The translations under genes were made by a program, and so were the position numbers. The notes beneath the pieces are model-generated. The model saw only the letters and a list, made by a program, of their open reading frames with translations, ran no database searches and was not told the DNA's origin. This document shows positions 21,317-38,785 of a stretch of DNA of 64,000 bases, piece by piece; position 1 is the stretch's first letter, and each line of letters begins with the position of its first letter. Origin of the DNA: a virus (Duplodnaviria; Heunggongvirae; Uroviricota; Caudoviricetes); IMG/VR virus record IMGVR_UViG_3300020576_001727, positions 103,062-167,061 of that record, one strand, 5' to 3'.

Positions 21317-21395
21317 GGGGGATTAGGCTAATTGGTATCGCCGGTAGTTTCAAAAACTACGCCGTTTGAGGGTTCGACTCCCTTGTTCCCTACCA
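21317..21395 (+). tRNA. tRNA, anticodon CAA (Leu-like but short variable arm)
   Basis: hand fold: acceptor gggggat/gttccct with G-U pairs, AC stem gtagt/actac loop ttcaaaa, T-loop ttcgact, CCA encoded. Confidence 0.45.
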
Positions 21396-21426
21396 ATTTT
21401 TTTTTTTGTTATGGAAAGGTCATTGT

Positions 21427-21727
21427 GATGACTTATAGACTTTTCGTTTCGCCATCCAATAGTGCTTTTGAGGAAGATTTTATCACGGTAAAGTCTTTGG
21501 AACAGGCAAAGCAGACAGTCGAGACTCTTGGATTTCCGTCTTATGTCAGTTTCGATGAAGACGCGGACTTCGGAGAAGAATTCGCGTATTGGCTTCTTGA
21601 TCTTGATATGATTTCTGATTATTGGTCATATCCGTCTCGATTTGAATGGTATGTTCATCCAAAAATGCCCATTCGAAATATGATCAATATGCAATTTGAA
21701 GGTTATAAGAAACATAAATTCAGATAA
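21427..21727 (+). CDS. hypothetical protein (internal ATG of ORF 21332..21727)
   Basis: ORF track; upstream part overlaps tRNA. Confidence 0.4.
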
Positions 21728-21730
21728 TTT

Positions 21731-21809
21731 GGGGTATTAGGCTAATTGGCATCGCCGGAACGCTTAAAACGTTCGTCGTCTGTGGGTTCGACTCCCTCAT
21801 GCCCTACCA
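21731..21809 (+). tRNA. tRNA, anticodon UAA (Leu-like, paralog of 21317)
   Basis: shares D-arm/T-arm sequence with 21317 tRNA; AC stem gaacg/cgttc loop cttaaaa. Confidence 0.45.
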
Positions 21810-21903
21810 ATATTTCTTCCTCTGTATGTGTCGGTTTGCGCAAAGCACCATTGACATTCGGTAATTTCTTTGTTATGTTGATTCCGTAATAACGGAGATA
21901 AAC

Positions 21904-22173
21904 ATGTCTGGTTATGTGAAGATTACCGAAGAGAACGTTGCCGACTATCCAGTTGGCACAATTGTCGAATTCTTTTGGGGTGCTATGTATCCCAAGGAAG
22001 AGGGAATTATCACCGGATTTGAAATTACCAAGTGGGGTGCCCATTTGGTCGCCAAGACCAATTCAGGAGATATCCATACGATCTCGGGATTTTCGTCGGT
22101 TGGTATTGGAACCTATCTGGTTAAGGTTCCGGAAACGAAGGTTAACAAGGCTTCGCCTTGGTATCGAGAATAA
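21904..22173 (+). CDS. hypothetical protein
   Basis: ORF track. Confidence 0.4.
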   Translation: MSGYVKITEENVADYPVGTIVEFFWGAMYPKEEGIITGFEITKWGAHLVAKTNSGDIHTISGFSSVGIGTYLVKVPETKVNKASPWYRE

Positions 22174-22261
22174 GGAAGGTAAAGCGAACGGGGTTCGTCC
22201 TCGCTTGGAAAGCGAGTGGTGCTGCAATACGCATGTGAGTCGGGATCACTGCCTTCCGCCA
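22174..22261 (+). tRNA. type II tRNA-Ser (anticodon GGA)
   Basis: 88 nt, acceptor ggaaggt/gccttcc, AC stem ctcgc/gcgag loop ttggaaa, long variable arm, CCA; paralog of Ser tRNAs at 30344-30622. Confidence 0.5.
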
Positions 22262-22266
22262 GAATT

Positions 22267-22362
22267 ATGAAACATAAACATCATATCATTCCTAAACATA
22301 TGGGCGGGAATGATAAAACAGAAACAAAATTTGGATTAATAATTCTCAAAAATCGAAAATGA
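22267..22362 (+). pseudogene. 31-codon remnant of HNH endonuclease N-terminus
   Basis: MKHKHHIIPKHMGGNDK resembles NHHIIPKCMGGSNDD of 28857..29498 HNH. Confidence 0.35.
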
Positions 22363-22422
22363 TTCTTAGAGAAGATTTGAACAAATATCAGGTTGATGGT
22401 TGGGCTGTTGGTAGATTAAAAC

Positions 22423-22818
22423 ATGTTGTATGTAATTCGAAAAAATGATATTAATTTAGATTGGTTCTCGGGAACTGGTCCCGGCGGACAAAACAGAAAT
22501 AAAGTAAAAAATTGTTTGCGCTTGACTCACAAGCCTTCGGGCATTAAAGTTATAGCTCAAACCAATCGAGATAGAATTTCAAATCTGAAAGAAGCTTATA
22601 TCAAGTTACAGCCTTTAGTGGCGCAATGGCTTCTAAAAGATCGGATTCAGCCGGAACGAATTGATACTGTCATACGTTCTTACAAGTTAGAAGATAATTT
22701 GGTTATTGATCATGTCTTGGGAAGACAGGAAGTCATGTTAAATCTCGATTCTATTGATCTTGATAGCTTTTTGGAAGAGAAATTGAGTCGTAATGAGCGA
22801 ACTGAAGTATTTCGATGA
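22423..22818 (+). CDS. hypothetical protein
   Basis: ORF track. Confidence 0.4.
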   Translation: MLYVIRKNDINLDWFSGTGPGGQNRNKVKNCLRLTHKPSGIKVIAQTNRDRISNLKEAYIKLQPLVAQWLLKDRIQPERIDTVIRSYKLEDNLVIDHVLGRQEVMLNLDSIDLDSFLEEKLSRNERTEVFR

Positions 22819-23230
22819 TCAGACATTCTTTCTAGATGCTGTTGATTTTGAAGAGGATGATATAAGCGACAAGGATGCAAGATGCATCCGTTTTCGTTTG
22901 GATGGTGTTGTCTATATCGCAGTTGAAGACCCTGAAGATGGATATCTTTCTTGTTTGAACGAAATTTTGATTGGTGACAAAATTACCAATCAGTTCAAAA
23001 AATGTCCGGTTCGCGGGAAATGGATTGACAAAAACGAATATGGTAGTGACTGTGACATAATTCAATTTATTGATGACTTGACAAACAAGGTTGTTTTGGA
23101 AATTGGGACGGATCATGCATACAATTACTATCCATCTTTCGTTGCCAATTTCAATCCAGAGAACATGTCGATAAATAAGAAAGCCGATGAATTGATAGAT
23201 AATGTGGTTATGAAAAACTGCTTGACATGA
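22793..23230 (+). CDS. hypothetical protein
   Basis: ORF track. Confidence 0.4.
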   Translation: MSELKYFDDQTFFLDAVDFEEDDISDKDARCIRFRLDGVVYIAVEDPEDGYLSCLNEILIGDKITNQFKKCPVRGKWIDKNEYGSDCDIIQFIDDLTNKVVLEIGTDHAYNYYPSFVANFNPENMSINKKADELIDNVVMKNCLT

Positions 23231-23266
23231 AATCGTGAGTGAGATAATATCTAGATAACAGTTAAT

Positions 23267-23350
23267 GAACCGATGACCCAAGAGGCGAAGGGCGCTGGCT
23301 TTTAACCAGTTAAACAAACACCGTGGGTTCGAGTCCCACTCGGTTCACCA
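23267..23350 (+). tRNA. tRNA-like, 84 nt, anticodon candidate UUU; irregular D-arm/long variable region
   Basis: acceptor gaaccga/tcggttc, T-arm gtgggttcgagtcccac, CCA. Confidence 0.4.
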
Positions 23351-23399
23351 ATATTAAAAGTCTCGGATCAATACGCCAATCCAAATAGAGACTTTTAAT

Positions 23400-23481
23400 G
23401 GACATGAAGTGTAAACGTCTTCGGAAGCGAAGTTGCCTCTTAAGCAACGCACAAATGGTTCGACTCCATTCATGTCCTCCA
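23400..23481 (+). tRNA. tRNA-like, anticodon candidate CUU; enlarged D region
   Basis: acceptor ggacatg/catgtcc, AC stem gttgc/gcaac loop ctcttaa, T-loop ttcgact, CCA. Confidence 0.4.
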
Positions 23482-23961
23482 ATTTTTTATATATTCTAGA
23501 ACTTTATCTTCAACAAGATATTTATATCTAGAATGCCAATATTGATGATGTGTTGGACACATTGGAATGAGATTTTCGGGAGAATTATTCGTTTTATCTT
23601 CATCAAGATGATGAACCGCTACGATATTTTCTTCCGAACAAATGACACATTTTTTGTCGTGATATTGAAAGCATGTTGAACGATAACTACTCTCTTTCCA
23701 AGCACCATTGCTGGAACCGGTTCTGAAATGTTTGTTAGAACAAGAATATCCGCATGTTGTGGATGTTTTGAAATTTTTAATTGGCTGTTCACATACAACA
23801 CAGAGCTTGATGTTAATGGGATTTAAATAACAATTGTTGTTGTGTCTCTTATAGTTTAATTTAGAAAAGAGTTTATTACAATGGTTGCATTGTATTTTTT
23901 CTTTTCCTGCGAGTCTTGCGTTTTCTAATAAAATTTTGTGAGATTCGTAATCATATGACAT
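23470..23961 (-). CDS. HNH homing endonuclease
   Basis: C-terminal VAVHHLDEDKTNNSPENLIPMCPTHH; multiple CxxC. Confidence 0.6.
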   Translation of the reverse strand: MSYDYESHKILLENARLAGKEKIQCNHCNKLFSKLNYKRHNNNCYLNPINIKLCVVCEQPIKNFKTSTTCGYSCSNKHFRTGSSNGAWKESSYRSTCFQYHDKKCVICSEENIVAVHHLDEDKTNNSPENLIPMCPTHHQYWHSRYKYLVEDKVLEYIKNWRT

Positions 23962-24003: not shown

Positions 24004-24074
24004 TTACGGAGCGTGGGAAAGTCTGGTAATCCGCCTGATTTGGGATCAGGAGTATCGTCGGGTTCAAGTCCCAC
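24004..24074 (+). tRNA. irregular tRNA-like element (anticodon-like hairpin UGG, GGTTCAAGTCC T-motif, acceptor does not pair canonically)
   Basis: cctga-tttggga-tcagg hairpin; gtcggg...cccgac helix; ends cca. Confidence 0.3.
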
Positions 24075-24105
24075 AGTCCCGACCAAAAATTTTTCATTTT
24101 GTCTA

Positions 24106-25999: not shown

Positions 26000-26073
26000 G
26001 GGTCATTAATTCAATGGGAGAATGTCTGTTTTACACACAGAATACGGCGGATCGTAACCGTCATGACCTACCA
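26000..26073 (+). tRNA. tRNA-Val (UAC)
   Basis: acceptor gggtcat/atgacct, D-stem attc/gaat, AC stem tctgt/acaga loop tttacac, CCA. Confidence 0.55.
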
Positions 26074-26077
26074 TTTT

Positions 26078-26151
26078 GCGGGCTTCGTATAATGAAAGTA
26101 TAATTGATTTCCACTCAATGGGTTAGGGTTTGATTCCCTAAGTCCGCGCCA
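26078..26151 (+). tRNA. tRNA-Gly (UCC)
   Basis: acceptor gcgggct/agtccgc, AC stem attga/tcaat loop tttccac, T-arm tagggtttgattcccta, CCA. Confidence 0.55.
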
Positions 26152-26159: not shown

Positions 26160-26234
26160 TCTCCCAAAGCATTGCTGGCGATGCGAGACTCTTGTAAGGT
26201 CGGGAATTCGGTTCGATTCCGGATGGGAGAACCA
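26160..26234 (+). tRNA. tRNA-Thr (UGU)
   Basis: perfect acceptor tctccca/tgggaga, D-stem gcat/atgc, loop cttgtaa, T-loop ttcgatt, CCA. Confidence 0.55.
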
Positions 26235-26235: not shown

Positions 26236-26874
26236 TCAATAACTCTTATTTTCTGCATATCGCTGTCTTCTATATGCTCTACCATTACCTTTGTTTTTAG
26301 CTTTGTATGTATCGGTTTGGGCATCACAATTACAGCAAATATAGCGTAAATTATCAATTCGCCAATCATCCGAGTTGCCGTTGATATGATCTAAAACCAA
26401 CGGAATTGGTTTGTCATTCCAAGTTTCTCGGTTACATATTTTGCAATTATGCCCTTGTTGATTTTTAATGTAATATCTCGCTTTGACCAAACTGGGTAAA
26501 ATACCTGTTTTTTCGCTTTCTTCTATCCAAATATTTCTTTTATGTTCAATTGTGCATTTTTTAGAACAAAATTTGCCTTTGCTATATCTCAATTTATCTC
26601 CACAATTCATACAATGTGATTTTGTTTTTGGCGATAGTTGATATTTTGTATTATTTGACGATTTATTTCCTCTGTTTAAATTATTATATGTGGCTGAACA
26701 ACTTTGATTGCAAAATTTCTTATTTCTTTCCGCATATGAAAAAGAAACAAAACAGTGTTGACATTTAGTTGGATTTTGGTTATAATTCAAAATACGTAAT
26801 TTTTTCTGTTCTTGTTTGGTTTGGTTAGATGCCGCTGCTCCTAGTCTACCTCTTTCAGAATGTGATAACATCAT
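26236..26874 (-). CDS. HNH homing endonuclease with Zn-ribbon repeats
   Basis: HNCKICN...LVLDHINGNSDDWRIDNLRYICCNCDAQTD. Confidence 0.65.
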   Translation of the reverse strand: MMLSHSERGRLGAAASNQTKQEQKKLRILNYNQNPTKCQHCFVSFSYAERNKKFCNQSCSATYNNLNRGNKSSNNTKYQLSPKTKSHCMNCGDKLRYSKGKFCSKKCTIEHKRNIWIEESEKTGILPSLVKARYYIKNQQGHNCKICNRETWNDKPIPLVLDHINGNSDDWRIDNLRYICCNCDAQTDTYKAKNKGNGRAYRRQRYAENKSY

Positions 26875-28505: not shown

Positions 28506-28883
28506 ATGGCTTATGTGTCGAAGGAAACCAAGGCGGCTGTTATGGTTGCTCTTGCTGCAACCGGCGCTAAGAAGGAAGGTTTTTCTTGGACGGTCGGCGT
28601 TCGCGACCACATGACCTTGCAAGTCAAGATTTGGAAGTATCCGACTTGGTTCAAGCTGAATCAGAAGTGGAGCGAATACGACTCCGAATATGGAATTGAT
28701 CTGAACACGTATCATCCTCATATGTATTTCGATGATACGCCGGAAGGGCAGAAGTCGCTTGAATGGATTAAGAAGTTCATCGCGGCAATGAACACTGGCA
28801 ATTGGGACAAGTCGGACGTGATGACTGATTATTTCAATGTTGGGTTTTTCGTGTCATTAAGGTTGTTTCCTAATAAGAAATGA
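28506..28883 (+). CDS. hypothetical protein
   Basis: ORF track; promoter TTGACA at 28449. Confidence 0.4.
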   Translation: MAYVSKETKAAVMVALAATGAKKEGFSWTVGVRDHMTLQVKIWKYPTWFKLNQKWSEYDSEYGIDLNTYHPHMYFDDTPEGQKSLEWIKKFIAAMNTGNWDKSDVMTDYFNVGFFVSLRLFPNKK

Positions 28884-29498
28884 TTTACAATTTTCGTTAT
28901 GAAAACGAGATAATATGTTTGCGGCGACCGATTTATCACAATATTTACATTTAATTTTGGGTTTCGGTCTCCCTTTTTGTTTTGTGCTAGAAGCAATTTT
29001 GATTTTTTCGATAGTTTCTGGCGAATGTGTCTTTCCATAAAATGGATTTTTTTCACCTATACATTTACCTTTTCTGTTTTGTGATATTAGTAATTTAGAT
29101 TCTTCTGTGTGGGGCTTTCTTTTTATGCCTAATTTGGAGAGACTCATATTTCTTCTGGTTTTTTCTGAAAAAGGTTTTCTCTTTCTGCCGATATATGAAA
29201 TGGATAATTCTTTTTTTAATTGTTCGTATTGACGTGCCGTAATTTTAATTTTATTTTTACGCATAGTAAATTGCCAAGCCGCATATGCAAGTTTTTCTTT
29301 ATATGGAGCATCGACCATTCTTATCAGAAGCAGATGGCATAAAAAGTGTTGACGGGCAGATAAACGTATGATATTATTGTCATCGTTAGAACCTCCCATG
29401 CATTTTGGAATAATATGATGATTTTCAACATATATGTCATTTTGGGGTTTTGAAATTATATCAAAATACCATTTGGTATATTTGTTATCTTTAAACAT
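28857..29498 (-). CDS. HNH homing endonuclease with NUMOD3 repeats
   Basis: NHHIIPKCMGGSNDDNNIIRL; repeated GRKRKPFSEKT/GIKRKPHTEES. Confidence 0.65.
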   Translation of the reverse strand: MFKDNKYTKWYFDIISKPQNDIYVENHHIIPKCMGGSNDDNNIIRLSARQHFLCHLLLIRMVDAPYKEKLAYAAWQFTMRKNKIKITARQYEQLKKELSISYIGRKRKPFSEKTRRNMSLSKLGIKRKPHTEESKLLISQNRKGKCIGEKNPFYGKTHSPETIEKIKIASSTKQKGRPKPKIKCKYCDKSVAANILSRFHNENCKSFLIRKQP

Positions 29499-29554: not shown

Positions 29555-29650
29555 ATGGCACATGAACGAAAAAATCGCCCGCGAAAGGGAAGACGTAAGG
29601 TCGGCTCTGCCAAGCGTCTTGCTCGACGCAAGCGCAAACAGAGAAAGTGA
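29555..29650 (+). CDS. 31-aa highly basic peptide (MAHERKNRPRKGRRKVGSAKRLARRKRKQRK)
   Basis: RBS ggaagg 6 nt upstream; 17 of 31 residues R/K. Confidence 0.35.
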   Translation: MAHERKNRPRKGRRKVGSAKRLARRKRKQRK

Positions 29651-30440: not shown

Positions 30441-30529
30441 GGAAAATGAACCGGACAGGCGAGCCGGAACCGCCTTGAAAGCGGATTGTCCCGAAAGGGA
30501 TGGATTTCGAGTATGCCCGTCTTCCGCCA
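30441..30529 (+). tRNA. type II tRNA-Ser (UGA)
   Basis: 89 nt; acceptor ggaaaat/gtcttcc (A6-U67 covaries with G6-C67 of paralogs); AC ccgc-cttgaaa-gcgg; variable arm tccc-gaaa-ggga. Confidence 0.45.
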
Positions 30530-30534: not shown

Positions 30535-30622
30535 GGAAAGTAAACCGGTTGGGAACCGGACACGTTTCGAAAACGTTGTGACCCGGTAACGGGTTATGGA
30601 TCGATACCATTGCTTTCCTCCA
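30535..30622 (+). tRNA. type II tRNA-Ser (CGA)
   Basis: 88 nt; acceptor ggaaagt/gctttcc; AC loop ttcgaaa; variable arm acccg-gtaa-cgggt; CCA. Confidence 0.5.
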
Positions 30623-30627: not shown

Positions 30628-30698
30628 GCCCATGTAGTATAAAGGTATTACGGCGCTTTGGTAAAGCGTAAAATCAGGATCGTTCCCTGACTTGGGCT
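30628..30698 (+). tRNA. tRNA-Thr (GGU), no encoded CCA, one acceptor mismatch
   Basis: D-stem gta/tac, AC stem gcgct/agcgt loop ttggtaa, T-arm tcagg-atcgttc-cctga. Confidence 0.4.
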
Positions 30699-30702
30699 CA
30701 TT

Positions 30703-30754: not shown

Positions 30755-31357
30755 TTGCTATACACGATCTATAAAATTACGAATAATATTAACGGTAAAA
30801 TTTATATTGGTAAACATCAAACTAAAAATTTAGATGATGGGTATTTTGGTTCTGGTAAAAATCTAAAACGTGCGATATCGAAATACGGTATAGAGAACTT
30901 TAACAAAGAAATTCTTTATGTATTCGACAACGAGTCGGATATGAATGTTAAGGAACGTGAATTAGTAACCGAAGAATTTTGTAAACGTCTAGATACCTAC
31001 AATATTTGTGAAGGTGGTAAAGGCGGATTTGGTTATATAAATTCGATTGTATCAAATGAAGATAAATCTAGGTTTGGAAAATTTGGCGCGCAAAAATATG
31101 TCGAACGTTTAAAATCAGACAAAAATTTTGCAGATTTGAGAATTTCTTCTTTCAAAGAAAGTATTCAAAAGTTAAGAGACTCTGGTTGGAAATCGTCCGA
31201 ATCTCATATGAAGTTGATGACTGAAAAAGCAGCCGAAAAAACACGTAACATGATATGGATTACAGACGGTGTTGCTAATAAAAAAATACTAAAAACTAAT
31301 AAAATTCCTCCAAATTTTTATAGAGGAAGAATTGTAAATAAACGTCAATCGTCATGA
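30755..31357 (+). CDS. GIY-YIG homing endonuclease (TTG start)
   Basis: [22 protein letters not shown]...YFGSG...NxE. Confidence 0.65.
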
Positions 31358-31361: not shown

Positions 31362-31577
31362 ATGACTATGCGTAACGATTTGATTATAATTGGACTTGCA
31401 TTCTTTGCGGTGTTTGTATTTCCAGTTCCCGCTATGATTTCGGCGGCAAGCACTGTAATGGTTTTGCTAGGAATTGGTATCGTCCTTCTAGGAGGATATG
31501 CGGCTTGGACTTCTGGAATGAAGATTTTCAAGAAGTTTCTGAACAATGATGTTGATAACAATGGAGAAAATGGATGA
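31362..31577 (+). CDS. small two-TM membrane protein
   Basis: two hydrophobic helices; overlaps start of SPFH gene. Confidence 0.45.
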   Translation: MTMRNDLIIIGLAFFAVFVFPVPAMISAASTVMVLLGIGIVLLGGYAAWTSGMKIFKKFLNNDVDNNGENG

Positions 31578-32446
31578 TTCGTAAGATTATGATTGCTGGA
31601 ATGCTCGGAATTTCCTTGCTTTCCTTGGCTGGTTGCGGAAAAGTTCCGGCTGGTAACGTGGGTGTCAAGGTCTATCTGCTAGGTGGCAGCAAGGGTGTTG
31701 ACAGTGAAGTTCTAACTCCCGGGCGCTATTTCATCGGCTGGAATGAAGACCTTTATTTGTTCCCTACGTTCACTCAAAACTATGTTTGGACCAAGGATTC
31801 AAGACCCGGTTCCGAGACAGACGAATCATTTACTTTCCAAACAAAGGAAGGCATGGCGGTAACAGCCGATATCGGTATCAGCTATGCAATTCGTCCAGAA
31901 AGTGTCAGCACGATCTTTCAGAAGTATCGTCGCGGGGTGGATGAAATCACAGATACTTTCTTGCGCAACATGGTAAGAGACGCCTTGGTTGTCGAAGCCT
32001 CGAAACTTCCAATCGAGTCGGTTTATGGTGCTGGTAAGGAAGATTTGATCAAGTCGGTTGAAAATCGCGTCAAATCGCAAGTCAATGAACTTGGTATCAA
32101 CATTGAGCGCATTTATTGGATTAATAGTCTTGAACTTCCTCCGGAAGTCGTCGGATTGATCAATGCTAAGATTGGTGCAACTCAAAAGACTCAACAGCGC
32201 CAGAATGAAATCGAGCAAGTCAAGGCTGAAGCTCAAAAGGCAATTGAAGAAGCGCGCGGTCTTGCTGAATCGGTCAAGCTAAGAGCGCAAGCCGAAGCAG
32301 AAGCCAACCGGATCATTAATCAGTCTTTGACCGATGACTTGGTTCGTTATAAGGCTTTGGAAAAATGGGATGGCGTATTGCCTCGTATGACGGGCGGCGG
32401 TGCAGTTCCTTTCATTGATGTAGAAAAAACCATTTCCAATCAATGA
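31574..32446 (+). CDS. SPFH/band-7 (prohibitin-like) domain lipoprotein
   Basis: lipobox LLSLAGCG; band-7 like core; C-terminal coiled-coil AQAEAEANRI. Confidence 0.55.
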   Translation: MIRKIMIAGMLGISLLSLAGCGKVPAGNVGVKVYLLGGSKGVDSEVLTPGRYFIGWNEDLYLFPTFTQNYVWTKDSRPGSETDESFTFQTKEGMAVTADIGISYAIRPESVSTIFQKYRRGVDEITDTFLRNMVRDALVVEASKLPIESVYGAGKEDLIKSVENRVKSQVNELGINIERIYWINSLELPPEVVGLINAKIGATQKTQQRQNEIEQVKAEAQKAIEEARGLAESVKLRAQAEAEANRIINQSLTDDLVRYKALEKWDGVLPRMTGGGAVPFIDVEKTISNQ

Positions 32447-32641: not shown

Positions 32642-33196
32642 TTGTTGACAACATCAAATGTCACATATATAGTAACACAGAATATGAAACTCTGCGAAAC
32701 TTGTCATAATCAACATGATGGTAATTTTGGTTCCGGAAGATTTTGTTGCAAAAAATGCGCTTGTTCATATAGCACCAAAAATTCTAGACATGAGATTAAT
32801 CAGAAGGTCAAAAATGCTTTAATTGGTCGAAAAGCTTCGATTGAAACGATAGACAAGATGAAAGAATCTTGGAAATCGAGAAAATCAAGCAATTCCTATT
32901 ATAGGCGTTCGCAAACGAATATTGAAGATATTTGTGTAGTCGATTCTATCTATACTACTAAATATGTTAAAGAAAGATTATTTCGCGACAATCTAAAAAA
33001 ATATGAATGTGAAGAATGTGGATTATATGAGTGGCGAAATAAGCCAATAACATTACAACTTCATCACAGAAATGGTAAAAATAAAGATCATAGATTAGAA
33101 AATCTGCAAATCTTATGTCCAATGTGTCATTCTCAAACGGACAATTATGCAGGAAGAAATAGAAGGCTTCGTATTTTAACTGGAAAGATGCATTGA
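32642..33196 (+). CDS. HNH homing endonuclease
   Basis: LQLHHRNGKNKDHRLENLQILCPMCH; N-terminal Zn ribbons; own promoter TTGACA-N17-TATAGT upstream. Confidence 0.65.
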   Translation: MLTTSNVTYIVTQNMKLCETCHNQHDGNFGSGRFCCKKCACSYSTKNSRHEINQKVKNALIGRKASIETIDKMKESWKSRKSSNSYYRRSQTNIEDICVVDSIYTTKYVKERLFRDNLKKYECEECGLYEWRNKPITLQLHHRNGKNKDHRLENLQILCPMCHSQTDNYAGRNRRLRILTGKMH

Positions 33197-33241
33197 CTAC
33201 GAATCAATGAGGTAAAGGTTCGAATCCTTTCGAAGTCGCCA
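33195..33241 (+). pseudogene. tRNA 3' fragment / minihelix (acceptor + T-arm + CCA, no D or anticodon arm) abutting HNH stop codon
   Basis: gactacg..aaaggttcgaatccttt cgaagtc g cca. Confidence 0.4.
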
Positions 33242-33244: not shown

Positions 33245-33319
33245 CAGGGTGTAAGAGATAAGATCATCGGTCGGTTTTGGAAACCGGCTAAGCTGGAGCG
33301 TTACCAGCCATCCTGACCA
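33245..33319 (+). tRNA. tRNA-Pro (UGG), weak D-stem, noncanonical T-loop
   Basis: acceptor cagggtg/catcctg, AC stem gtcggt/accggc loop tttggaa, CCA. Confidence 0.45.
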
Positions 33320-33401
33320 ATTCTCTCTTAAGTGTTGGCGCACGAAAGAGAGATAAGCAAAGCCCGAAAAAGCAAATCACGCCAATGATTTGTGAGTAAC
33401 G

Positions 33402-33470
33402 AGTCATATCGTCTAGGGCGGAAGGACGCCCCTGTTGAAGGGGGAAACGTGGGTTCGAATCCCATTATGT
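33402..33470 (+). tRNA. tRNA-like (D-arm cgtc/gacg, T-arm gtgggttcgaatcccat) whose acceptor halves do not pair; possible pseudo-tRNA
   Basis: hand fold. Confidence 0.3.
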
Positions 33471-33862
33471 TTAGCTTTGCTTTAAAATTTCGGATTAAGT
33501 TCCCGTCAACGCACACTAGCGACGTTAACTTTGGGTGCCGTGTTTTGTTGCTTCCTCCCGTTAAGAAAGCAATCCTTTTGATTATTTTCGGCGAAAAATA
33601 ATCGGTCATGCGTGAGTGTCTACAATTCTTACGCCGTATGGTAGCACGGATGCACCATGTCAATGCCAGTCAGACATACCCAAAAATGTGATATAATTGG
33701 AAAAAAATATCAATCTGGCAACCTATTAAATGCTTGATTTGACTATAAAATCAGGTATAATACAGTAAACAGGAACGATGAATCAGATAGTTTTCGTCCT
33801 ATCGTTCAAAGCGTCGTAAAGTCCGCCCGGTCTGTTCAAAACGGTGGCGGGTTAGAATTTAT

Positions 33863-33940
33863 TCCTCAGAGGCGAGCAAGGTGCACGCGGCGGTCTGTTA
33901 AACCGAGTTAAGGCAGGTTCGATTCCTGCTTGGGGAGCCA
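33863..33940 (+). tRNA. tRNA-Asn (GUU), U1-A72
   Basis: acceptor tcctcag/ttgggga with wobbles, AC loop ctgttaa, T-arm gcaggttcgattcctgc, CCA. Confidence 0.45.
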
Positions 33941-34138: not shown

Positions 34139-34212
34139 GCGGGTATCGTATAACGGAATTATGCGACGTTGCCAACGTTGAGAAGTCGGATCGTCCCCGA
34201 CTACCCGCACCA
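34139..34212 (+). tRNA. tRNA-Gly (GCC)
   Basis: perfect acceptor gcgggta/tacccgc, AC stem cgacg/cgttg loop ttgccaa, CCA. Confidence 0.55.
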
Positions 34213-34275: not shown

Positions 34276-34350
34276 GGCGCATTAGTTTAGTGGCTAGAAT
34301 CCTCGGCTTTCAACCGGGAGGAAGGGGATCGAAACCCCTATGCGCTACCA
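34276..34350 (+). tRNA. tRNA-Glu (UUC)
   Basis: acceptor ggcgcat/atgcgct, loop ctttcaa, T-arm aggggatcgaaacccct, CCA. Confidence 0.55.
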
Positions 34351-34377: not shown

Positions 34378-34452
34378 TGCGGGGTAGAGAAGCAGCATCT
34401 CGCCACTCTCATAAAGTGGAAATCATCGGTGCGAGTCCGGTCCCCGCAACCA
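34378..34452 (+). tRNA. tRNA with CAU anticodon (Met/fMet/Ile2)
   Basis: D-stem gaga/tctc, AC stem ccact/agtgg loop ctcataa, CCA. Confidence 0.55.
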
Positions 34453-34504: not shown

Positions 34505-34918
34505 TTAAGAATTTCGTAAATTATAATGTAGTTTACGATGACAGTTTGAACAAAGAATATCACATTTTTCGATTTCTTTCTTGATACGATCAAGCGATAT
34601 TCCGTTTCTAGATAATCTGGCAATTGACTGTTCTTTTTGATTAGGATCACGATGATGAAAATCAAGTGCTGCAATGTGATTTTCTGGACATTGACTGCAT
34701 GATTTATCAGAAAGATATTGCAATACATATTCTCTGTTACGATTGTATATGTTTTTGACGTTTTTGCGAACACGTTTGCGTTCATCAGAATTATTTTTAT
34801 ATTTTTCTCTATTATGAGTTCGAATACATTCTTTACACCAAGAATTAAGTTTTCCGTTTGTCTTGGGTGAAAATTGATTTTCCTCTTTTAGAGATTGACA
34901 TTTAGAACAAATTTTCAT
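34505..34918 (-). CDS. HNH homing endonuclease
   Basis: CSQCPENHIAALDFHHRDPNQKE...CSNCHRKLH. Confidence 0.65.
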   Translation of the reverse strand: MKICSKCQSLKEENQFSPKTNGKLNSWCKECIRTHNREKYKNNSDERKRVRKNVKNIYNRNREYVLQYLSDKSCSQCPENHIAALDFHHRDPNQKEQSIARLSRNGISLDRIKKEIEKCDILCSNCHRKLHYNLRNS

Positions 34919-34962: not shown

Positions 34963-35040
34963 GCCCGACTGACGAAAATGGAAGCCGTGTCAGACTTAGA
35001 ATCTGAATTTTTGGGGGTTCGACTCCCCCGTTGGGCACCA
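34963..35040 (+). tRNA. tRNA, anticodon UAG (Leu-like, short variable arm)
   Basis: acceptor gcccgac/gttgggc, AC stem tcaga/tctga loop cttagaa, T-arm gggggttcgactccccc, CCA. Confidence 0.5.
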
Positions 35041-35047: not shown

Positions 35048-35122
35048 GCCGGTATAGTGCTAATGGTAACACGCCTGTTTGTGGAGCAGGAATCAAAGGA
35101 TCGATACCTTTTGCCGGTGCCA
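35048..35122 (+). tRNA. tRNA-His (GUG)
   Basis: acceptor gccggta/tgccggt, AC stem cctgt/gcagg loop ttgtgga, CCA. Confidence 0.5.
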
Positions 35123-35343
35123 TTTAGACTTTAGGGCGCGCGGAATGCCGTTGCTTCCCTAATGTCTAGACCCAAAGATTATGGGCGATTGGGTCTATAA
35201 ATATAAGGCTTGTTGAAAGACAAGAATTCGTCGCGGTCATGCTCTTTGAGTTCATTCCGTAAAGGTTGGACACTCCTTTCAAAAGTGCTATCGAGGGTTT
35301 AGGTGATTTTCCCGCGTAAGCAAAAAATCATACCAGTTTTAAT

Positions 35344-35417
35344 GGTCCCTTGATGTAATGGTAGCATACCACTCTGTCTAAGTGAGAGCAGCGGATCGTA
35401 ACCGCTAGGGATCGCCA
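35344..35417 (+). tRNA. tRNA-Asp (GUC)
   Basis: acceptor ggtccct/agggatc, D-stem atgt/gcat, loop ctgtcta, CCA. Confidence 0.45.
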
Positions 35418-35560
35418 ATGAGAACGCACAGCCCGAATGCCTAATTATGGTCAAGACTGTGGTTCAATAGTCCGGTGGCTACCTTTGCCCGTAAGGGTGT
35501 GGAACCAACCACTTAATAGTTAGACGACTGAACGGTGTCGGCAAACCCGGAAGTTGGGTG

Positions 35561-35585
35561 GAAATCCCAACAACTTTTTAAAAAG
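35561..35585 (+). terminator. rho-independent terminator gttggg-tggaaat-cccaac + T-run
   Basis: read directly. Confidence 0.5.
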
Positions 35586-35649
35586 TCTCTTGACAATCTT
35601 TCGGTCAAGAGATAATATATACATAACATGAACGAAAGGAATTAATCAG

Positions 35650-35745
35650 ATGGCGTGGGTAAAAGAAACGGTTCCTTATACTCCCGAATCTTTTGGAATG
35701 GCAATAGCTATTGCCATTTTGATGATCGAATATCTGATTTTCTAG
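35650..35745 (+). CDS. 31-aa hydrophobic peptide (MAWVKETVPYTPESFGMAIAIAILMIEYLIF)
   Basis: TTGACA-N17-TAATAT promoter within 9-bp inverted repeat upstream; RBS aagga. Confidence 0.35.
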   Translation: MAWVKETVPYTPESFGMAIAIAILMIEYLIF

Positions 35746-35748
35746 TGT

Positions 35749-35824
35749 CAGAAACAAGCCTTGGTAGGCTAACTTGTCTCATAAGCAAGCCAAATTGTGA
35801 GTTCGATTCTCACTTCCGCAACCA
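35749..35824 (+). tRNA. tRNA-like with CAU anticodon arm and canonical T-arm, acceptor not pairing as drawn
   Basis: D-arm agcc-ttggta-ggct, AC cttgt-ctcataa-gcaag, T gtgagttcgattctcac, ...cca. Confidence 0.35.
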
Positions 35825-35973
35825 AAGTGGGTGACGCTGCGAAATTGCGAAAGTAACAGCGAAAATTCCCGAATAGGCAAAAACCGAAATCCTAAGCGCG
35901 CTCAAGATGGTCGGTTTGGTTGACAAGCGGGGTTAAGTTTCTTAGCGGGGGCTATGTCAACATTTGAATTCAT

Positions 35974-36049
35974 GGCAGTATGGGGTAGCTGGTGCGCCCG
36001 TCCGTCTCATAAGCGGAAAGAACCTGATCGTAACAGGTTACTGCTACCA
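35974..36049 (+). tRNA. tRNA with CAU anticodon (third copy)
   Basis: acceptor ggcagta/tactgct, D-stem gggt/gccc, AC tccgt-ctcataa-gcgga, CCA. Confidence 0.55.
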
Positions 36050-36058: not shown

Positions 36059-36105
36059 GTGCCAAACGGACACGTTGAAAGAACTCTGTTTGGTTTATTT
36101 TATGG
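36059..36105 (+). terminator. hairpin ccaaac...gtttgg followed by tttatttt
   Basis: read directly. Confidence 0.4.
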
Positions 36106-36194
36106 GGAGTGCAAATAAGGGTTGCTGGTGCAGCCGCCGAGTTGTAGCCTCGGTCCTTAATGGCAGGAGATTCGATTTCGTCCATTCCCCACCA
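36104..36194 (+). tRNA. type II tRNA-Tyr (GUA)
   Basis: 88 nt, acceptor ggggagt/attcccc, AC ccgag-ttgtagc-ctcgg, variable arm, CCA. Confidence 0.45.
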
Positions 36195-36202: not shown

Positions 36203-36276
36203 GTCCTCATAGCTTAGTGGCAAAGCGGGCGCTTGATAGGCGTTTGACCTTAGTTCGATTCTAGGTGGGGACACCA
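36203..36276 (+). tRNA. tRNA-Ile (GAU)
   Basis: acceptor gtcctca/tggggac, D-stem gctt/aagc, loop ttgatag, CCA. Confidence 0.5.
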
Positions 36277-36291: not shown

Positions 36292-36981
36292 TTGATGTAT
36301 TTTACCATCTATAAAATAACGAATAAAATCAATGGTAAAACTTATATCGGAAAGCATCAAACCGAAAATTTAAACGATGGTTACTTCGGTTCCGGTAATG
36401 GAATAAAATACGCCATTGCTAAATATGGCAAGGATAACTTTGTCAAAGAAATTCTTCATGTTTTTGACAATGAATCCGATATGAACGCTAAAGAAGCTGA
36501 ATTAGTTACCGAAGAATTTTGTAAACGTTTGGATACTTATAACATCATGACCGGTGGTTATGGAGATTTTAATTTCATAACTCCTGAAGAAAGAACAAAA
36601 AATGCTAAAAAGGGTATATCTTGTTTGAATAAAAAATTGGATTCGGACCCAATGTTCCGACAACAATTTTATAAAAAACGAACTGAAGCAATCAGAAATG
36701 TCGATTGGTCATCAATCAATTTGATTGGAAGAACTCATACAAAAATATCCAAAGATAAAATGAGGGAAAAGGCTCTTGGTAGAAAACGTTCCGAATTGTC
36801 TATAAAATTTCAGAAAATAAATTCATTAGGTGAAAAAAATTCTCAATATGGGACTCGTTGGTCTTGGATTACAGATGGCCAAACGAACAAAAAAGTGCCA
36901 TATTTAGAGGATAAGGATATTCCAGAAGGCTGGAAAAGAGGAAGAAGTCGGACAGGACAACTAGTGGAGTCGTTCGCTTGA
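36292..36981 (+). CDS. GIY-YIG homing endonuclease
   Basis: YFTIYKITNKINGKTYIGKHQT; paralog of 30755 gene. Confidence 0.65.
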   Translation: MMYFTIYKITNKINGKTYIGKHQTENLNDGYFGSGNGIKYAIAKYGKDNFVKEILHVFDNESDMNAKEAELVTEEFCKRLDTYNIMTGGYGDFNFITPEERTKNAKKGISCLNKKLDSDPMFRQQFYKKRTEAIRNVDWSSINLIGRTHTKISKDKMREKALGRKRSELSIKFQKINSLGEKNSQYGTRWSWITDGQTNKKVPYLEDKDIPEGWKRGRSRTGQLVESFA

Positions 36982-37023
36982 CATGCGAAAGATGGTAGGC
37001 GCGAAACCTACGTTCGACACCAT
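36969..37023 (+). pseudogene. tRNA 3'-fragment-like element (T-arm-like hairpin + acceptor-like + ACCA) overlapping GIY-YIG stop
   Basis: gtagg-cgcgaaa-cctac gttcgac a cca. Confidence 0.3.
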
Positions 37024-37310: not shown

Positions 37311-37313
37311 TTT

Positions 37314-37388
37314 GGGCTGTTGGTGATAATGGGAGCATCCCGCACTTGCAATGCGGGGGAGACGGATCGTAACCGTCACAGTCCACCA
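37314..37388 (+). tRNA. tRNA-Ala (UGC)
   Basis: acceptor gggctgt/acagtcc (G3-U70), AC ccgca-cttgcaa-tgcgg, CCA. Confidence 0.55.
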
Positions 37389-37395
37389 AGTTTAA

Positions 37396-37468
37396 TGCGG
37401 GGTAGTAGAAGTTAGAACGCCGGTCTTTGAAACCGGAGATACTGGTTCAAGTCCAGTCCGCGCAGCCA
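37396..37468 (+). tRNA. tRNA-Gln (UUG), U1-A72
   Basis: AC ccggt-ctttgaa-accgg, T-arm actggttcaagtccagt, CCA. Confidence 0.5.
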
Positions 37469-37479
37469 ATTTTAACAAT

Positions 37480-37570
37480 GGTTCCATAGCATAAAGGTAA
37501 TGCGCCGAGCTTATACCTCGTTACTCCTGATTAGAGGGTGATACAGGTTCGAATCCTGTTGGAACTACCA
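37480..37570 (+). tRNA. type II-length tRNA (88 nt), anticodon candidate UAU; identity uncertain
   Basis: acceptor ggttcca/tggaact, D-stem gcat/atgc, 21-nt variable arm, T-arm acaggttcgaatcctgt, CCA then T9 run. Confidence 0.45.
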
Positions 37571-37585
37571 ATTTTTTTTTATTTT

Positions 37586-37978
37586 ATGTTGTTGATAGAA
37601 GAATATATTAAAAAATCAATAGAAGATCGCCAAAAACATCTAGATTTACAATCTGAATGTGATGAAAGGGGCGGATTTTCTTCTTATTATAAAGGATTAA
37701 TGGCATATTATCTTGACACAACAATTCCTTCCGGAAATCGTATTTTAGTTTGTCATGCTTGCCATAATTCAAAATGTAGTAATCCAAAACATTTATATTT
37801 TGGAACACCAAAAGAAAATGTAGCAGATATGAAATCTGTAGGTAATTTTAAAAATGCGTGGCAAGCTAAAGTTGATAAATATGGTCATGATGAAGCACTT
37901 AAAATGGTCCGAGAACATTTGAATAAAGTAAGATATCTAGGAACCATAGCTTCGCCAGTAACTAAAAAAAGAAAATAA
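37586..37978 (+). CDS. HNH (His-Me finger) endonuclease
   Basis: ILVCHACHNSKCSNPKHLYFGTPKEN. Confidence 0.55.
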   Translation: MLLIEEYIKKSIEDRQKHLDLQSECDERGGFSSYYKGLMAYYLDTTIPSGNRILVCHACHNSKCSNPKHLYFGTPKENVADMKSVGNFKNAWQAKVDKYGHDEALKMVREHLNKVRYLGTIASPVTKKRK

Positions 37979-37985
37979 ATTTTAT

Positions 37986-38060
37986 TCCCCGTTCGTCTAA
38001 CGGTAGGACCACACGCTTTGAACGTGTCCAATGGAGGTTCGAATCCTTCGCGGGGAGCCA
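37986..38060 (+). tRNA. tRNA-Gln (UUG) second copy
   Basis: D-arm gtctaacggtaggac, AC acacg-ctttgaa-cgtgt, CCA. Confidence 0.5.
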
Positions 38061-38068
38061 AATCATGT

Positions 38069-38142
38069 TTCCGAGTCGTCTAGTGGTAGGACGTTTCTCT
38101 CTGAAAGAAAAGACGGTTGTTCGAATCAACCCTTGGAAGCCA
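38069..38142 (+). tRNA. tRNA-Gln (CUG)
   Basis: acceptor ttccgag/cttggaa, AC tttct-ctctgaa-agaaa, T-arm ggttgttcgaatcaacc, CCA. Confidence 0.5.
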
Positions 38143-38292
38143 AATTTAGAAAGAATTTGTAATGAACGAAATCAATTTGACAGGTAATTGGCAAAAAACC
38201 CCTTGGTATTTCACTCTGTTTGGCTTTTCTGCCAAACGTCGCAAAATTCATCACTCCAAAAATCCAGAACTTTATGTATGGGAATATCAGTA

Positions 38293-38700
38293 ATGGCATA
38301 TAGACTTTACATCATCATGCGAACTGATATGGCTTCAATGAACGCTGGTAAGGCGATGGCACATGCTGCACATGCCGCCAATGATTTCGAAGACAGAATT
38401 CAAAAATACATCAAGAAACATGATGAAGATGAATGGCTTGTCAATCGTTATCTAGACTGGAAAGAAGATCGTTCGTTTGGAACGACTCTTGTTTTTGGCG
38501 GAAAAGAAAATGATATCATGACCGTAACAGGATCACATTTCGAAGATGGTATGTCCGGTCTTGTGATCGATCCTACTTATCCAATTCGTGATGGTGAAAT
38601 CGTTCATCATATCAGTATCATGACTTGTGGTTGGGTCTTCTGTGATGAAGACGAGTGGAAATCCAATCCAAACGCGGCTTCTCTGTCGCTTCATCCTTAG
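38293..38700 (+). CDS. peptidyl-tRNA hydrolase, Pth2 family-like
   Basis: IIMRTDMASMNAGKAMAHAAHAAND resembles Pth2 motif (RTDL.MGKGK.AAQ..HA). Confidence 0.45.
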   Translation: MAYRLYIIMRTDMASMNAGKAMAHAAHAANDFEDRIQKYIKKHDEDEWLVNRYLDWKEDRSFGTTLVFGGKENDIMTVTGSHFEDGMSGLVIDPTYPIRDGEIVHHISIMTCGWVFCDEDEWKSNPNAASLSLHP

Positions 38701-38711
38701 TTCAAAAAATC

Positions 38712-38785
38712 GCCCCTATCGTCTAGTGGTAGGACATTAGATTCTCAATCTAAAGGTGTCGGATCGTAACCGACTAGGGGAACCA
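38712..38785 (+). tRNA. tRNA-Glu (CUC), G1-A72 mismatch
   Basis: D-arm gtctagtggtaggac, AC ttaga-ttctcaa-tctaa, CCA. Confidence 0.45.

Follow-up and report, generated by a model that had tools for sequence, protein, structure and literature searches.

Arrays in which many tRNA genes lie together with endonuclease genes and a large non-coding RNA have been described before. A tRNA array unit is defined as at least 20 tRNA genes at a density of at least 2 per kb (Tran et al. 2016, PMC4758250), and GOLLD RNA is found beside tRNA islands that have HNH genes close by, its linker at times containing tRNAs (PMC12286853, PMC6582537). SegB of phage T4 sits within the T4 tRNA cluster and drives its preferential inheritance (PMC2330249). 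Here we consider positions 21317-38785 of a window of 64,000 nucleotides (positions 103,062 to 167,061 of IMG/VR record IMGVR_UViG_3300020576_001727), which is part of JGI metagenome contig Ga0364480_10126 (170,332 bp). This island is very probably a tRNA gene array of an uncultured T4-like phage, with ~42 genes, ~38 of them apparently intact, on one strand over 17.5 kb of the early region, and with homing endonuclease genes between the sub-clusters. Two of its members depart from the cloverleaf in a way that we tentatively read as a functional tRNA-Arg class, specific to phages, whose core has been rewired in its topology, a proposal to which we give somewhat less than even credence.

Mycobacterial and phage tRNA array units with GOLLD and HNH genes (PMC6582537, PMC4758250; Morgado 2020 cited in PMC12286853), share with the island a count of 20 or more tRNA genes, a density near 2 per kb, a GOLLD RNA that adjoins the array and holds a nested pseudo-tRNA, and the presence of HNH genes. 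Unlike those units, the window belongs to a T4-like phage of ~40% G+C known from a metagenome, not to an actinobacterial element, and its tRNA sequences are unrelated. The T4 tRNA cluster with SegB, and the Seg and Mob genes (PMC2330249), offer the parallel of a T4-like phage with an early-region tRNA cluster and free-standing GIY-YIG or HNH genes between tRNAs, including an endonuclease present in one phage and absent in a relative; the difference is one of scale, T4 having 8 tRNAs and one endonuclease against ~42 tRNAs and 8-9 predicted endonuclease genes in the window. Arrays of this kind with homing endonucleases and GOLLD are already known, and the island is an unusually complete further example; a phage with its own decoding set, homing endonucleases and GOLLD RNA is useful as a catalogue entry, and not surprising.

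The source is an uncultured, distant T4-like phage, an assignment based on a gp43-type DNA polymerase in the window with 44% identity to cyanomyovirus polymerases, together with a UvsX-like recombinase and a DnaB-like helicase that the phage also encodes. A megablast search of 21 kb against 50,697 phage records returned zero matches, so the phage is without a close cultured relative at the nucleotide level. An independent assembly, Logan contig L002, is 100% identical to the window and therefore gives no comparative information. Relatives were gathered instead through homologues of the SPFH/Band 7 protein encoded in the island, which yielded 39 IMG/VR and metagenome contigs with 54-72% protein identity, though these told little about the island as a whole. 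The nearest of them, L017 (Band 7 identity 72%), is the sole syntenic one of the 39 loci, with the order Gly(UCC), odd Arg, Cys, Cys, Trp, Ser, Ser, Thr(GGU), small open reading frame (ORF), Band 7; its tRNAs are separated by small ORFs, not by endonuclease genes.

Across the 64 kb of the window, default ARAGORN called 31 tRNA genes, 30 of them in the island, one at 41168-41238 and none elsewhere; every one is on the + strand. Its outermost calls in the island coincide exactly with the limits given in a preliminary description of this DNA, which had folded the tRNAs by hand. Far from rejecting most of those calls, the Rfam tRNA covariance model gave 27 matches at gathering score with default filters and, with permissive filters, 33 at or above gathering score inside the island, where the union of ARAGORN and Rfam is 34 tRNA genes. 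Eight further candidates (four Ser, Asp, Tyr, Val(GAC) and a degenerate CAU tRNA) come from relaxed ARAGORN, run at 90% or 80% of its thresholds (-ps90/-ps80), and from hand reading. The seven relaxed calls, Ser(GCU), Ser(UGA), Ser(CGA), Asp(GUC), CAU at 35746-35824, Tyr(GUA) and Val(GAC), fall exactly within the ORF-free gaps that were left over, and Ser(GGA) was found by eye. The total of ~42 candidates in 17.47 kb, all on the single + strand, corresponds to 2.4 per kb, or 1.95 per kb for the 34 tool-supported genes, and both 34 and ~42 exceed the 20 genes in the definition of an array unit. The preliminary figure of at least ~35 tRNAs is confirmed and was slightly low. Its placement of every tRNA on the + strand agrees with every default ARAGORN call, its statement that CCA is mostly encoded holds for 38 of the 42 candidates, and every isotype that it listed is present, including four type II tRNA-Ser that neither default ARAGORN nor Rfam finds; its list was incomplete, omitting two Lys, three Arg, the second Cys, the second Pro, Val(GAC) and the UAU tRNA.

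Because readers for Arg, Lys and UAU are present too, the anticodon set covers all 20 amino acids, and standard wobble reaches nearly every sense codon used in the 57 ORFs of the window. Cys, Gly(UCC), Pro and Gln(UUG) are each represented twice. About one quarter of the island's tRNAs are non-canonical, a departure from the cloverleaf that the preliminary description had not noticed, and default tRNA finders missed or misread a fifth of the island's genes. The tools under-call because non-canonical T loops are frequent (e.g. AUCGUAA, GUCGGAA, GGCGGAA, AGCGUUA) and because three tRNA-Ser occur here in the 8/4 form, with an 8-bp acceptor stem and a 4-bp T stem. The non-canonical members, above all the rewired tRNA-Arg, are the part of the island worth pursuing, and to do so is feasible in cultured phages. 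One fold among the misread genes breaks with the connectivity of the universal cloverleaf, yet it is conserved in hundreds of phages, laboratory models among them.

The two odd genes (29696-29776 and 29995-30075) have a normal 7-bp acceptor stem, T arm and CCA end, with 7/7 and 5/5 pairs formed. They have no D stem-loop between the acceptor and anticodon stems; after a spacing of only 8 nucleotides (nt) from the acceptor strand comes a perfect hairpin, CCGG-CUUCGAA-CCGG in the UCG copy and CCGG-CUUCUAC-CCGG in the UCU copy, whose 7-nt loop resembles an anticodon loop with U33 and R37 present. A 3-bp helix (11-13/40-42) encloses this anticodon hairpin and shows compensatory change between the copies, CAG/CUG in one and CGC/GCG in the other. 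Read from the 5' end, the acceptor strand is followed by U8-A9-U10, the first helix strand, the anticodon hairpin, a conserved 9-nt NCGUUAANN linker that stands where the usual variable loop would be, and the second helix strand, after which a D-loop-like UAAUGGAGUAU segment (UAAYUGGAGUAU) runs straight into the T arm.

This fold is borne out by comparison among phages. An exact 21-mer from an odd tRNA had zero matches in IMG/VR, and a degenerate pattern was required; a four-sequence model was built with the homologues in related contigs L017 and L042, the pattern then gave 39 IMG/VR contigs, and the model search alignment holds 46 sequences, 40 of them distinct. Over the 40 distinct sequences, 99.3% of the cells in the proposed structure are paired and double changes occur in 17 of 19 pairs. 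The enclosing helix varies while remaining paired, with GC 14, UA 14, AU 9 and CG 3 at pair 12-41, and CG 28, GC 7 and UA 4 at pair 13-40. All slid registers of the fold are less than 44% paired, and RNAalifold predicts the rewired fold de novo.

Other folds were tried for the same RNAs and rejected. A cloverleaf with a UUA anticodon leaves the D stem 56% and the anticodon stem 75% paired, with zero covariation. A second alternative, a hairpin in which GUUA of the linker pairs with UAAY of the D-loop-like segment, was set aside: it would compete with the covarying helix, and no covariation links the variable positions 33 and 46.

The segment UAAYUGGAGUAU reads like a D loop (A14, R15, Y16, U17, G18, G19, A20 ... 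A21). We infer that the D stem is kept and its strands re-connected: the acceptor 5' strand would enter the strand that normally follows the D loop and continue into the anticodon stem, the anticodon 3' strand would lead back, by way of the 9-nt linker, to the strand that in an ordinary tRNA comes before the D loop, and the D loop would enter the T stem. Such rewiring could preserve the L-shape, because the canonical chain ends meet near U8, A14, A21 and position 48. It counts against the proposal that the alignment was partly collected by a pattern that fixed some columns, whose invariance is uninformative because the pattern imposed it. The covarying columns and the conserved UGGAGUAU segment (UGG-AGUAU) were left free by the pattern.

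Of the 37 main-family sequences of the rewired RNAs, 35 have the anticodon UCU and 2 have UCG; divergent members have ACG, GCG and, in one case, UAU. The determinants of E. coli-type arginyl-tRNA synthetase (ArgRS) are A20, C35, U/G36 and A/G73 (PMC9976931). In the main family the discriminator is G in 16 sequences, A in 15 and U in 4, and an A follows GG in 34 of the 37; this A would be the equivalent of determinant A20. Within the window, the two rewired genes would serve the codons AGA/AGG and CGA/CGG, and the rewired Arg(UCU) gene is the sole reader of AGA, which is the commonest Arg codon (27%) of the 57 ORFs.

Two pairs of canonical and rewired genes indicate that the rewired gene is orthologous to an ordinary phage tRNA-Arg(UCU). 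In its acceptor stem and T arm, the UCU copy of the window (copy B) is identical to the canonical 76-nt tRNA-Arg(UCU) of related contig L026. In phage Felix O1, the rewired gene comes directly after tRNA-Ile, where Shigella phage Sf14, of the same subfamily, has a canonical 77-nt tRNA-Arg(TCT), and the anticodon arm is identical between the canonical Sf14 tRNA and the rewired Felix O1 tRNA. Among the flanks examined, a separate canonical Arg(UCU) gene lies beside the rewired gene in two loci only, one with a rewired copy of the UCG type and one with a truncated rewired copy.

Searches of cultured phage records with blastn found 163 carriers when the query was the window copy and 263 when it was that of Felix O1, spread over Felixounavirus, phi92-like, rV5-like and 121Q-type jumbo phages and phages of Klebsiella, Proteus, Serratia, Vibrio and Streptomyces, and a pattern search of 185,579 bacterial and archaeal species genomes gave two contigs of metagenome-assembled genomes only. 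In 60 sampled records the gene has no label, lies under a hypothetical coding sequence, or is labelled tRNA-OTHER, tRNA-Undet or tRNA-Val, and never tRNA-Arg. Streptomyces phage Yaboi has the label tRNA-Val(aac) and phage 121Q the label tRNA-Leu(taa), both anticodons being read from the conserved linker; where ARAGORN does call Arg(tct), it adds a false 5' extension of 14 nt. The Felix O1 record has 22 annotated tRNAs and is without an AGA reader, because its sole annotated Arg tRNA is listed for CGU. No earlier description of D-armless or non-canonical phage tRNAs of this kind was found in the searchable literature, which is itself incomplete. Directly upstream of the rewired Arg(UCG) gene of the window, a 31-codon ORF (29555-29650, +) with a GGAAGG ribosome-binding site encodes the extremely basic peptide MAHERKNRPRKGRRKVGSAKRLARRKRKQRK.

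The closest structural parallel in organelles, the D-armless mitochondrial tRNA-Ser(AGY/UCU) of animals (PMC7609411, PMC9427863), likewise has no D hairpin between the acceptor and anticodon stems and an extended anticodon arm. Those tRNAs are reduced, which the phage RNAs, at 81-83 nt, are not: their T arm is normal, a D-loop-like GG segment is retained, and two distant strands form a D-stem-like helix. The hosts of these phages are bacteria with ordinary translation factors. A fold without the D hairpin that EF-Tu, the ribosome and modification enzymes normally meet, in a family that is almost phage-specific, would also suit tRNA-like decoys or regulators that do not decode, such as bait for an anticodon nuclease or a ligand for GOLLD or a phage protein. 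This alternative is unlikely, given what the RNAs retain: the 7-bp acceptor stem, a T arm of 5 bp whose loop contains UUCGA, CCA in most cases, U33 and A37 in a 7-nt loop, the A corresponding to the ArgRS determinant, and anticodons limited to Arg (UCU, UCG, ACG, GCG) with the one UAU exception. It also fits poorly with the replacement of canonical tRNA-Arg(UCU) at the same locus and with the dependence of AGA decoding in the window on the rewired copy.

The reading of 29696-29776 and 29995-30075 as functional tRNA-Arg that, in several phage lineages, took over the locus of the ordinary tRNA-Arg(UCU) would have consequences beyond this phage. If it is true, normal bacterial translation can work with an L-shape of different strand topology, and phage tRNA inventories and codon-adaptation studies need correcting, Felix O1 gaining the AGA reader that it apparently lacks. 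The rewired RNA would also be a testable candidate for structural evasion of tRNA-targeting immunity in easily grown phages; as a speculation on its cause, rewiring may serve to evade a host nuclease or modification enzyme whose recognition of tRNA-Arg depends on D-arm/anticodon-arm geometry. Phage tRNAs are known to escape or replace tRNAs cut by defence nucleases (PMC10264068, PMC11555353, PMC11464382), and the structural deviations in the island at large may, again speculatively, make its tRNAs poor substrates for host enzymes that target tRNA. The phage tRNAs that counter PrrC, PARIS and retron PtuAB (T5; PMC10264068, PMC11464382, PMC11555353) are similar in forming a large phage-encoded set that deviates from the host type. 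They differ in that theirs are point changes in the anticodon loops of normal cloverleaves, and in the window whole structural domains are altered.

For the array as a whole, the tRNA sub-clusters would be transcribed early from many host sigma70-type promoters, as motif enrichment suggests, host RNases would trim the transcripts to the genome-encoded CCA ends, and host aminoacyl-tRNA synthetases would charge the products for use in phage translation. The decoding set would be nearly self-sufficient, because its anticodons read codons for all 20 amino acids. Going by published work, the most likely benefit would be that translation of phage genes could go on despite a host tRNA pool that is ill-matched, decays after host shut-off, or is cut by tRNA-targeting defence nucleases. 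The endonuclease genes would be selfish elements that spread, by analogy with T4 SegB, through cutting endonuclease-free alleles in co-infecting relatives, and a GGQ-domain peptidyl-tRNA hydrolase, a Pth2-like protein and GOLLD RNA would travel with the array.

Several observations weigh against this account of the array. Eight of the candidates depend on relaxed thresholds or hand folding only, and several of the HNH assignments fall below the curated cutoffs of Pfam. Four candidates, Pro 24007, CAU 35746, Gln-like 33402 and Ser(UGA) 30441, look degenerate in a test of their pairs, and because four or five do so, part of the array may be decaying. Furthermore, most of the 39 Band 7 loci have 0-6 tRNAs within 10 kb, so a large array is not required in the lineage. 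These last two observations, together with the duplicated isoacceptors, the 8-9 interleaved endonuclease genes and the known joint movement of GOLLD, HNH and tRNA arrays (PMC6582537), would be expected if the array were mostly a selfish or decaying passenger, a horizontally acquired unit that homing endonucleases carry and shuffle along with GOLLD, rich in pseudogenes and of little use to the phage. Such an origin is improbable in view of the ~38 genes that keep full acceptor and T stems and CCA, of a set non-redundant enough to cover 20 amino acids, of the tRNA order that L017 keeps at 72% protein identity, and of compensatory changes between paralogues and orthologues, which show purifying selection on structure.

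That the two odd genes are UAA (ochre) suppressors in a phage that recodes stop is very improbable indeed, for although ARAGORN -ps80 draws 29696-29776 as 'tRNA-Stop(tta)', the Rfam tRNA model scores both genes just above gathering score and public homologues carry the labels tRNA-Leu(taa) and tRNA-Val(aac) from the same linker sequence, the suppressor cloverleaf has G33 and the poorly paired stems without compensatory change given above, against 99-100% pairing and abundant covariation in the rewired fold, long ORFs are intact under code 11 with TAA a normal stop in ordinary usage over the 57 window ORFs (TGA 35, TAA 18, TAG 4), and a canonical tRNA-Arg(UCU) fills the same slot in relatives.

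The endonuclease genes of the tRNA array are interspersed among its sub-clusters, and four of the six internal HNH/His-Me ORFs lie antisense to the tRNAs. The preliminary description had counted seven HNH genes, of which six are inside the island and the seventh, a weak one, lies just outside it at 20846-21304; the two GIY-YIG genes that it reported (30755-31357 and 36292-36981) are confirmed, both being above Pfam cutoffs, and the very large tRNA island interleaved with HNH and GIY-YIG homing endonucleases that it proposed is supported. For one gene, presence and absence can be compared directly. Positions 2996-4064 of L017 are collinear with window 31368-32436, and the Thr(GGU) gene of L017 ends 25 nt before this block; in the window, the GIY-YIG gene 30755-31357 sits between Thr(GGU) and the ORF at 31368, and its presence here and absence there is the pattern expected of a homing endonuclease gene.

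The many sigma70-like promoters of the preliminary description are likewise borne out as an enrichment of motifs, with 88 sites found against 51.4 +/- 6.0 in shuffled sequences. About 20 near-consensus TTGACA-N17-TATnnT sites lie on the + strand, and near-consensus promoters are found directly upstream of tRNA sub-clusters, e.g. at 23222, 29865 and 33951. Among the accompanying genes, the GGQ protein (131 aa, GPGGQ motif) matches domain 3 of RF1/RF2 and PrfH in the PDB and is of the stand-alone type, having an RF-1 domain with GGQ and no codon-recognition domains. The weak Pth2-like protein had no sequence match in the PDB, and a MazG-like protein is also encoded in the island region according to Pfam/PHROG searches. 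Speculatively, rescue of stalled ribosomes and of peptidyl-tRNA travels with the array through the GGQ-domain and Pth2-like proteins.

The functional extent of the island reaches the full-length GOLLD RNA at 41103-41562, which lies 2.3 kb downstream of the last tRNA. The tRNA-like element at 41168-41238 is in the A-rich linker of GOLLD (49.2 bits, no CCA, acceptor 5/7). Upstream of GOLLD, 850 nt (40257-41102) hold no + strand ORF of at least 50 aa, and two TTGACA-type promoters are found there (40253 and 40349); the stretch may be a variable 5' domain of GOLLD.

Of the remaining unusual tRNAs, those for Ser resemble the (8/4) tRNA-Ser form known from bacteriophages (Mukai et al. 2017, PMC5389517). 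Ser GGA, GCU and CGA share its 8-bp acceptor stem, 4-bp T stem, long variable arm and Ser anticodons, forming 8/8 + 4/4 pairs against 7/7 + 4/5 when drawn in the 7/5 form. The window differs from the described form in that Ser(CGA) has U73 (the other three have G73) and in that the fourth copy, Ser(UGA) at 30441-30529, is imperfect, with mismatches in both stems in the 8/4 and 7/5 forms alike, although it too has the long variable arm and a Ser anticodon. There is furthermore no (8/4) tRNA-His partner of the Mukai system in the window, whose His tRNA is 7/5. The two forms are ambiguous, both being fully paired, in Lys(CUU), Gly 26078, Trp and Ile(GAU), which were kept as 7/5. In Tyr(GUA) at 36104-36194, the 8-bp acceptor stem is fully paired only with an 8-nt linker before a 6-bp D stem with a 4-nt loop, and the variable region has an AAUGG motif, as in the rewired Arg.

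The UAU tRNA has homologues in three related contigs, in Acinetobacter phage qsb1 (annotated as tRNA-Ile) and in Lactobacillus phage LpeD (unannotated). The stem of its variable arm covaries, and the loop keeps a CAGAUUAG-like motif that is common to phages qsb1 and LpeD. By analogy, the nearest parallel is the class II UAU tRNA of nematodes (nev-tRNA, Leu-charged; PMC3333845), which shares the long variable arm, the UAU anticodon and A73; the window tRNA differs in its phage context and in the conserved CAGAUUAG loop. The same three features recur in allo-tRNA(UAU) (PMC5389517), and the window tRNA is not an allo-tRNA because it is 7/5, not 8/4. Its amino acid would be Ile or Leu. The coordinates of these and most other features are collected in Table 1.

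Table 1. Features of the tRNA island and its surroundings, in window coordinates, followed by homologous loci in other contigs and phages
Feature	Position	Strand	Evidence and remarks
Weak HNH-like ORF bordering island	20846-21304	+	Pfam HNH E 0.007, below cutoff
tRNA-Leu(CAA), CCA encoded	21317-21395	+	ARAGORN; Rfam 39.5 bits
tRNA-Leu(UAA), CCA encoded	21731-21809	+	ARAGORN; Rfam 40.9 bits
tRNA-Ser(GGA), type II, 8/4, G73, CCA	22174-22261	+	Hand reading; pairs 8/8 + 4/4; missed by default ARAGORN/Rfam
Stand-alone GGQ (RF-1 domain) protein, ArfB/PrfH-like peptidyl-tRNA hydrolase	22423-22818	+	Pfam RF-1 4.3e-15
tRNA-Lys(UUU), 12-nt variable loop	23267-23350	+	ARAGORN; Rfam 47.6 bits
tRNA-Lys(CUU), atypical D region with C(UUCG)G hairpin	23400-23481	+	Rfam 35 bits; ARAGORN -ps90
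HNH endonuclease, antisense to tRNAs	23470-23961	-	Pfam HNH_2 1.2e-5, HNH_3 4.8e-5
tRNA-Pro(UGG), weak, possible pseudogene	24007-24085	+	ARAGORN; Rfam 32.6 bits; acceptor 5/7, T stem 3/5
tRNA-Phe(GAA), non-canonical T loop GGCGGAA	25919-25994	+	Rfam 36.9 bits
tRNA-Val(UAC), tandem	26000-26073	+	ARAGORN, Rfam
tRNA-Gly(UCC), tandem	26078-26151	+	ARAGORN, Rfam
tRNA-Thr(UGU), tandem	26160-26234	+	ARAGORN, Rfam
HNH endonuclease	26236-26874	-	Pfam HNH_3 1.4e-4, just below cutoff
HNH + NUMOD3 homing endonuclease	28857-29498	-	Pfam NUMOD3 2.2e-12, HNH_5 0.002
Putative rewired tRNA-Arg(UCG)	29696-29776	+	Rfam 29.3 bits; ARAGORN -ps80 'Stop(tta)'; structure tests
tRNA-Thr(CGU)	29782-29856	+	ARAGORN, Rfam
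Promoter	29865-29893	+	Promoter scan
tRNA-Gly(UCC)	29913-29987	+	ARAGORN, Rfam
Putative rewired tRNA-Arg(UCU)	29995-30075	+	Rfam 29.7 bits; structure tests
tRNA-Cys(GCA)	30085-30159	+	ARAGORN, Rfam
tRNA-Cys(GCA), no CCA	30172-30245	+	ARAGORN, Rfam
tRNA-Trp(CCA)	30264-30337	+	ARAGORN, Rfam
tRNA-Ser(GCU), type II, tandem, 8/4	30344-30432	+	ARAGORN -ps90/-ps80; no Rfam match
tRNA-Ser(UGA), type II, tandem, imperfect	30441-30529	+	ARAGORN -ps90/-ps80; no Rfam match
tRNA-Ser(CGA), type II, tandem, 8/4, U73	30535-30622	+	ARAGORN -ps90/-ps80; no Rfam match
tRNA-Thr(GGU), no CCA	30628-30699	+	ARAGORN, Rfam
GIY-YIG (SegE-like) homing endonuclease	30755-31357	+	Pfam; missing from same slot in L017
SPFH/Band 7 protein	31574-32446	+	Pfam Band_7 4.5e-24; conserved anchor gene for finding relatives
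HNH endonuclease, 3' end overlaps start of tRNA-Arg(ACG)	32684-33196	+	Pfam HNH 0.0046; gene call in L002
tRNA-Arg(ACG)	33165-33241	+	ARAGORN, Rfam
tRNA-Pro(UGG), T loop AGCGUUA	33245-33319	+	ARAGORN, Rfam
Gln/Glu-like tRNA-like element, no CCA, acceptor 6/7	33402-33473	+	ARAGORN; Rfam 38.1 bits
tRNA-Asn(GUU)	33863-33940	+	ARAGORN, Rfam
tRNA-Gly(GCC)	34139-34212	+	ARAGORN, Rfam
tRNA-Glu(UUC)	34276-34350	+	ARAGORN, Rfam
tRNA-CAU	34378-34452	+	ARAGORN, Rfam
HNH endonuclease	34505-34918	-	phrog_2255 HNH endonuclease 1.6e-33
tRNA-Leu(UAG)	34963-35040	+	ARAGORN, Rfam
tRNA-His(GUG)	35048-35122	+	ARAGORN, Rfam
tRNA-Asp(GUC), U37, T loop AUCGUAA	35344-35417	+	ARAGORN -ps90; pairs 7/7 + 5/5
CAU tRNA-like, probable pseudogene	35746-35824	+	Relaxed ARAGORN; acceptor 5/7
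tRNA-CAU (Met or Ile2)	35974-36049	+	ARAGORN; Rfam 44.1 bits
tRNA-Tyr(GUA), atypical	36104-36194	+	ARAGORN -ps90; hand reading; fold of low confidence
tRNA-Ile(GAU)	36203-36276	+	ARAGORN, Rfam
GIY-YIG (SegE-like) homing endonuclease	36292-36981	+	Pfam GIY-YIG 3.4e-5, SegE_GIY-YIG 1.7e-6
tRNA-Val(GAC), overlaps final 35 nt of GIY-YIG ORF	36947-37022	+	ARAGORN -ps90; pairs 7/7 + 5/5
tRNA-Ala(UGC)	37314-37388	+	ARAGORN, Rfam
tRNA-Gln(UUG)	37396-37468	+	ARAGORN, Rfam
UAU-anticodon tRNA, 91 nt, 7/5, A73, long variable arm	37480-37570	+	ARAGORN; Rfam 59.5 bits
His-Me finger endonuclease	37586-37978	+	Pfam zf-His_Me_endon 1.3e-4, below cutoff
tRNA-Gln(UUG)	37986-38060	+	ARAGORN, Rfam
tRNA-Gln(CUG)	38069-38142	+	ARAGORN, Rfam
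Weak Pth2-like protein	38293-38700	+	Pfam PTH2 1.4e-4, below cutoff; phrog_1866
tRNA-Glu(CUC)	38712-38785	+	ARAGORN, Rfam
GOLLD RNA	41103-41562	+	Rfam RF02032 214.6 bits, gathering score 150, model 1-416
UAU tRNA homologue	L006:8335-8426		
UAU tRNA homologue	L013:9199-9290		
UAU tRNA homologue	L016:9469-9560		
UAU tRNA homologue	L087:101-191		
UAU tRNA homologue	L088:88-195		
Rewired locus	L017:1446-1527		
Rewired locus	L042:1393-1475	-	
Rewired loci	L043-L080		
Rewired locus, Felix O1	AF320576.1:25951-26032		
Rewired locus, Yaboi	NC_048730.1:86686-86766		
Rewired locus, 121Q	KM507819.1:73585-73666		

Two stretches of the island are largely non-coding. The first, 33320-33862, is a 540-nt ORF-free stretch that holds the tRNA-like element 33402-33473, which is closed by a 9-bp outer stem (33356-33364/33474-33482) reminiscent of the tRNA nested in GOLLD and is either a pseudogene or a piece of a larger RNA. 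The second, 35123-35973 (850 nt, mostly non-coding), contains Asp(GUC), the degenerate CAU tRNA, a terminator-like hairpin at 35553-35571 and a consensus promoter at 35590-35618. A permissive Rfam scan of 20500-42500 gave no non-tRNA family at 33320-33700, 35123-35343 or 35418-35580, and the folding energies of these three segments are unremarkable (z -1.46, -1.38 and -0.32, respectively).

In related contig L022 (436-511), ARAGORN calls a 'tRNA-Pyl' with a CUA anticodon, which may be an amber suppressor in that relative. Upstream of the island, auxiliary genes at window 956-2317 and 12718-19888 encode a CobS-like AAA ATPase (PHROG family label 'porphyrin biosynthesis'), a HAD-like hydrolase fusion, a UDP-glucose dehydrogenase-like protein and two nucleotide-sugar epimerases, and are candidates for sugar or DNA modification.

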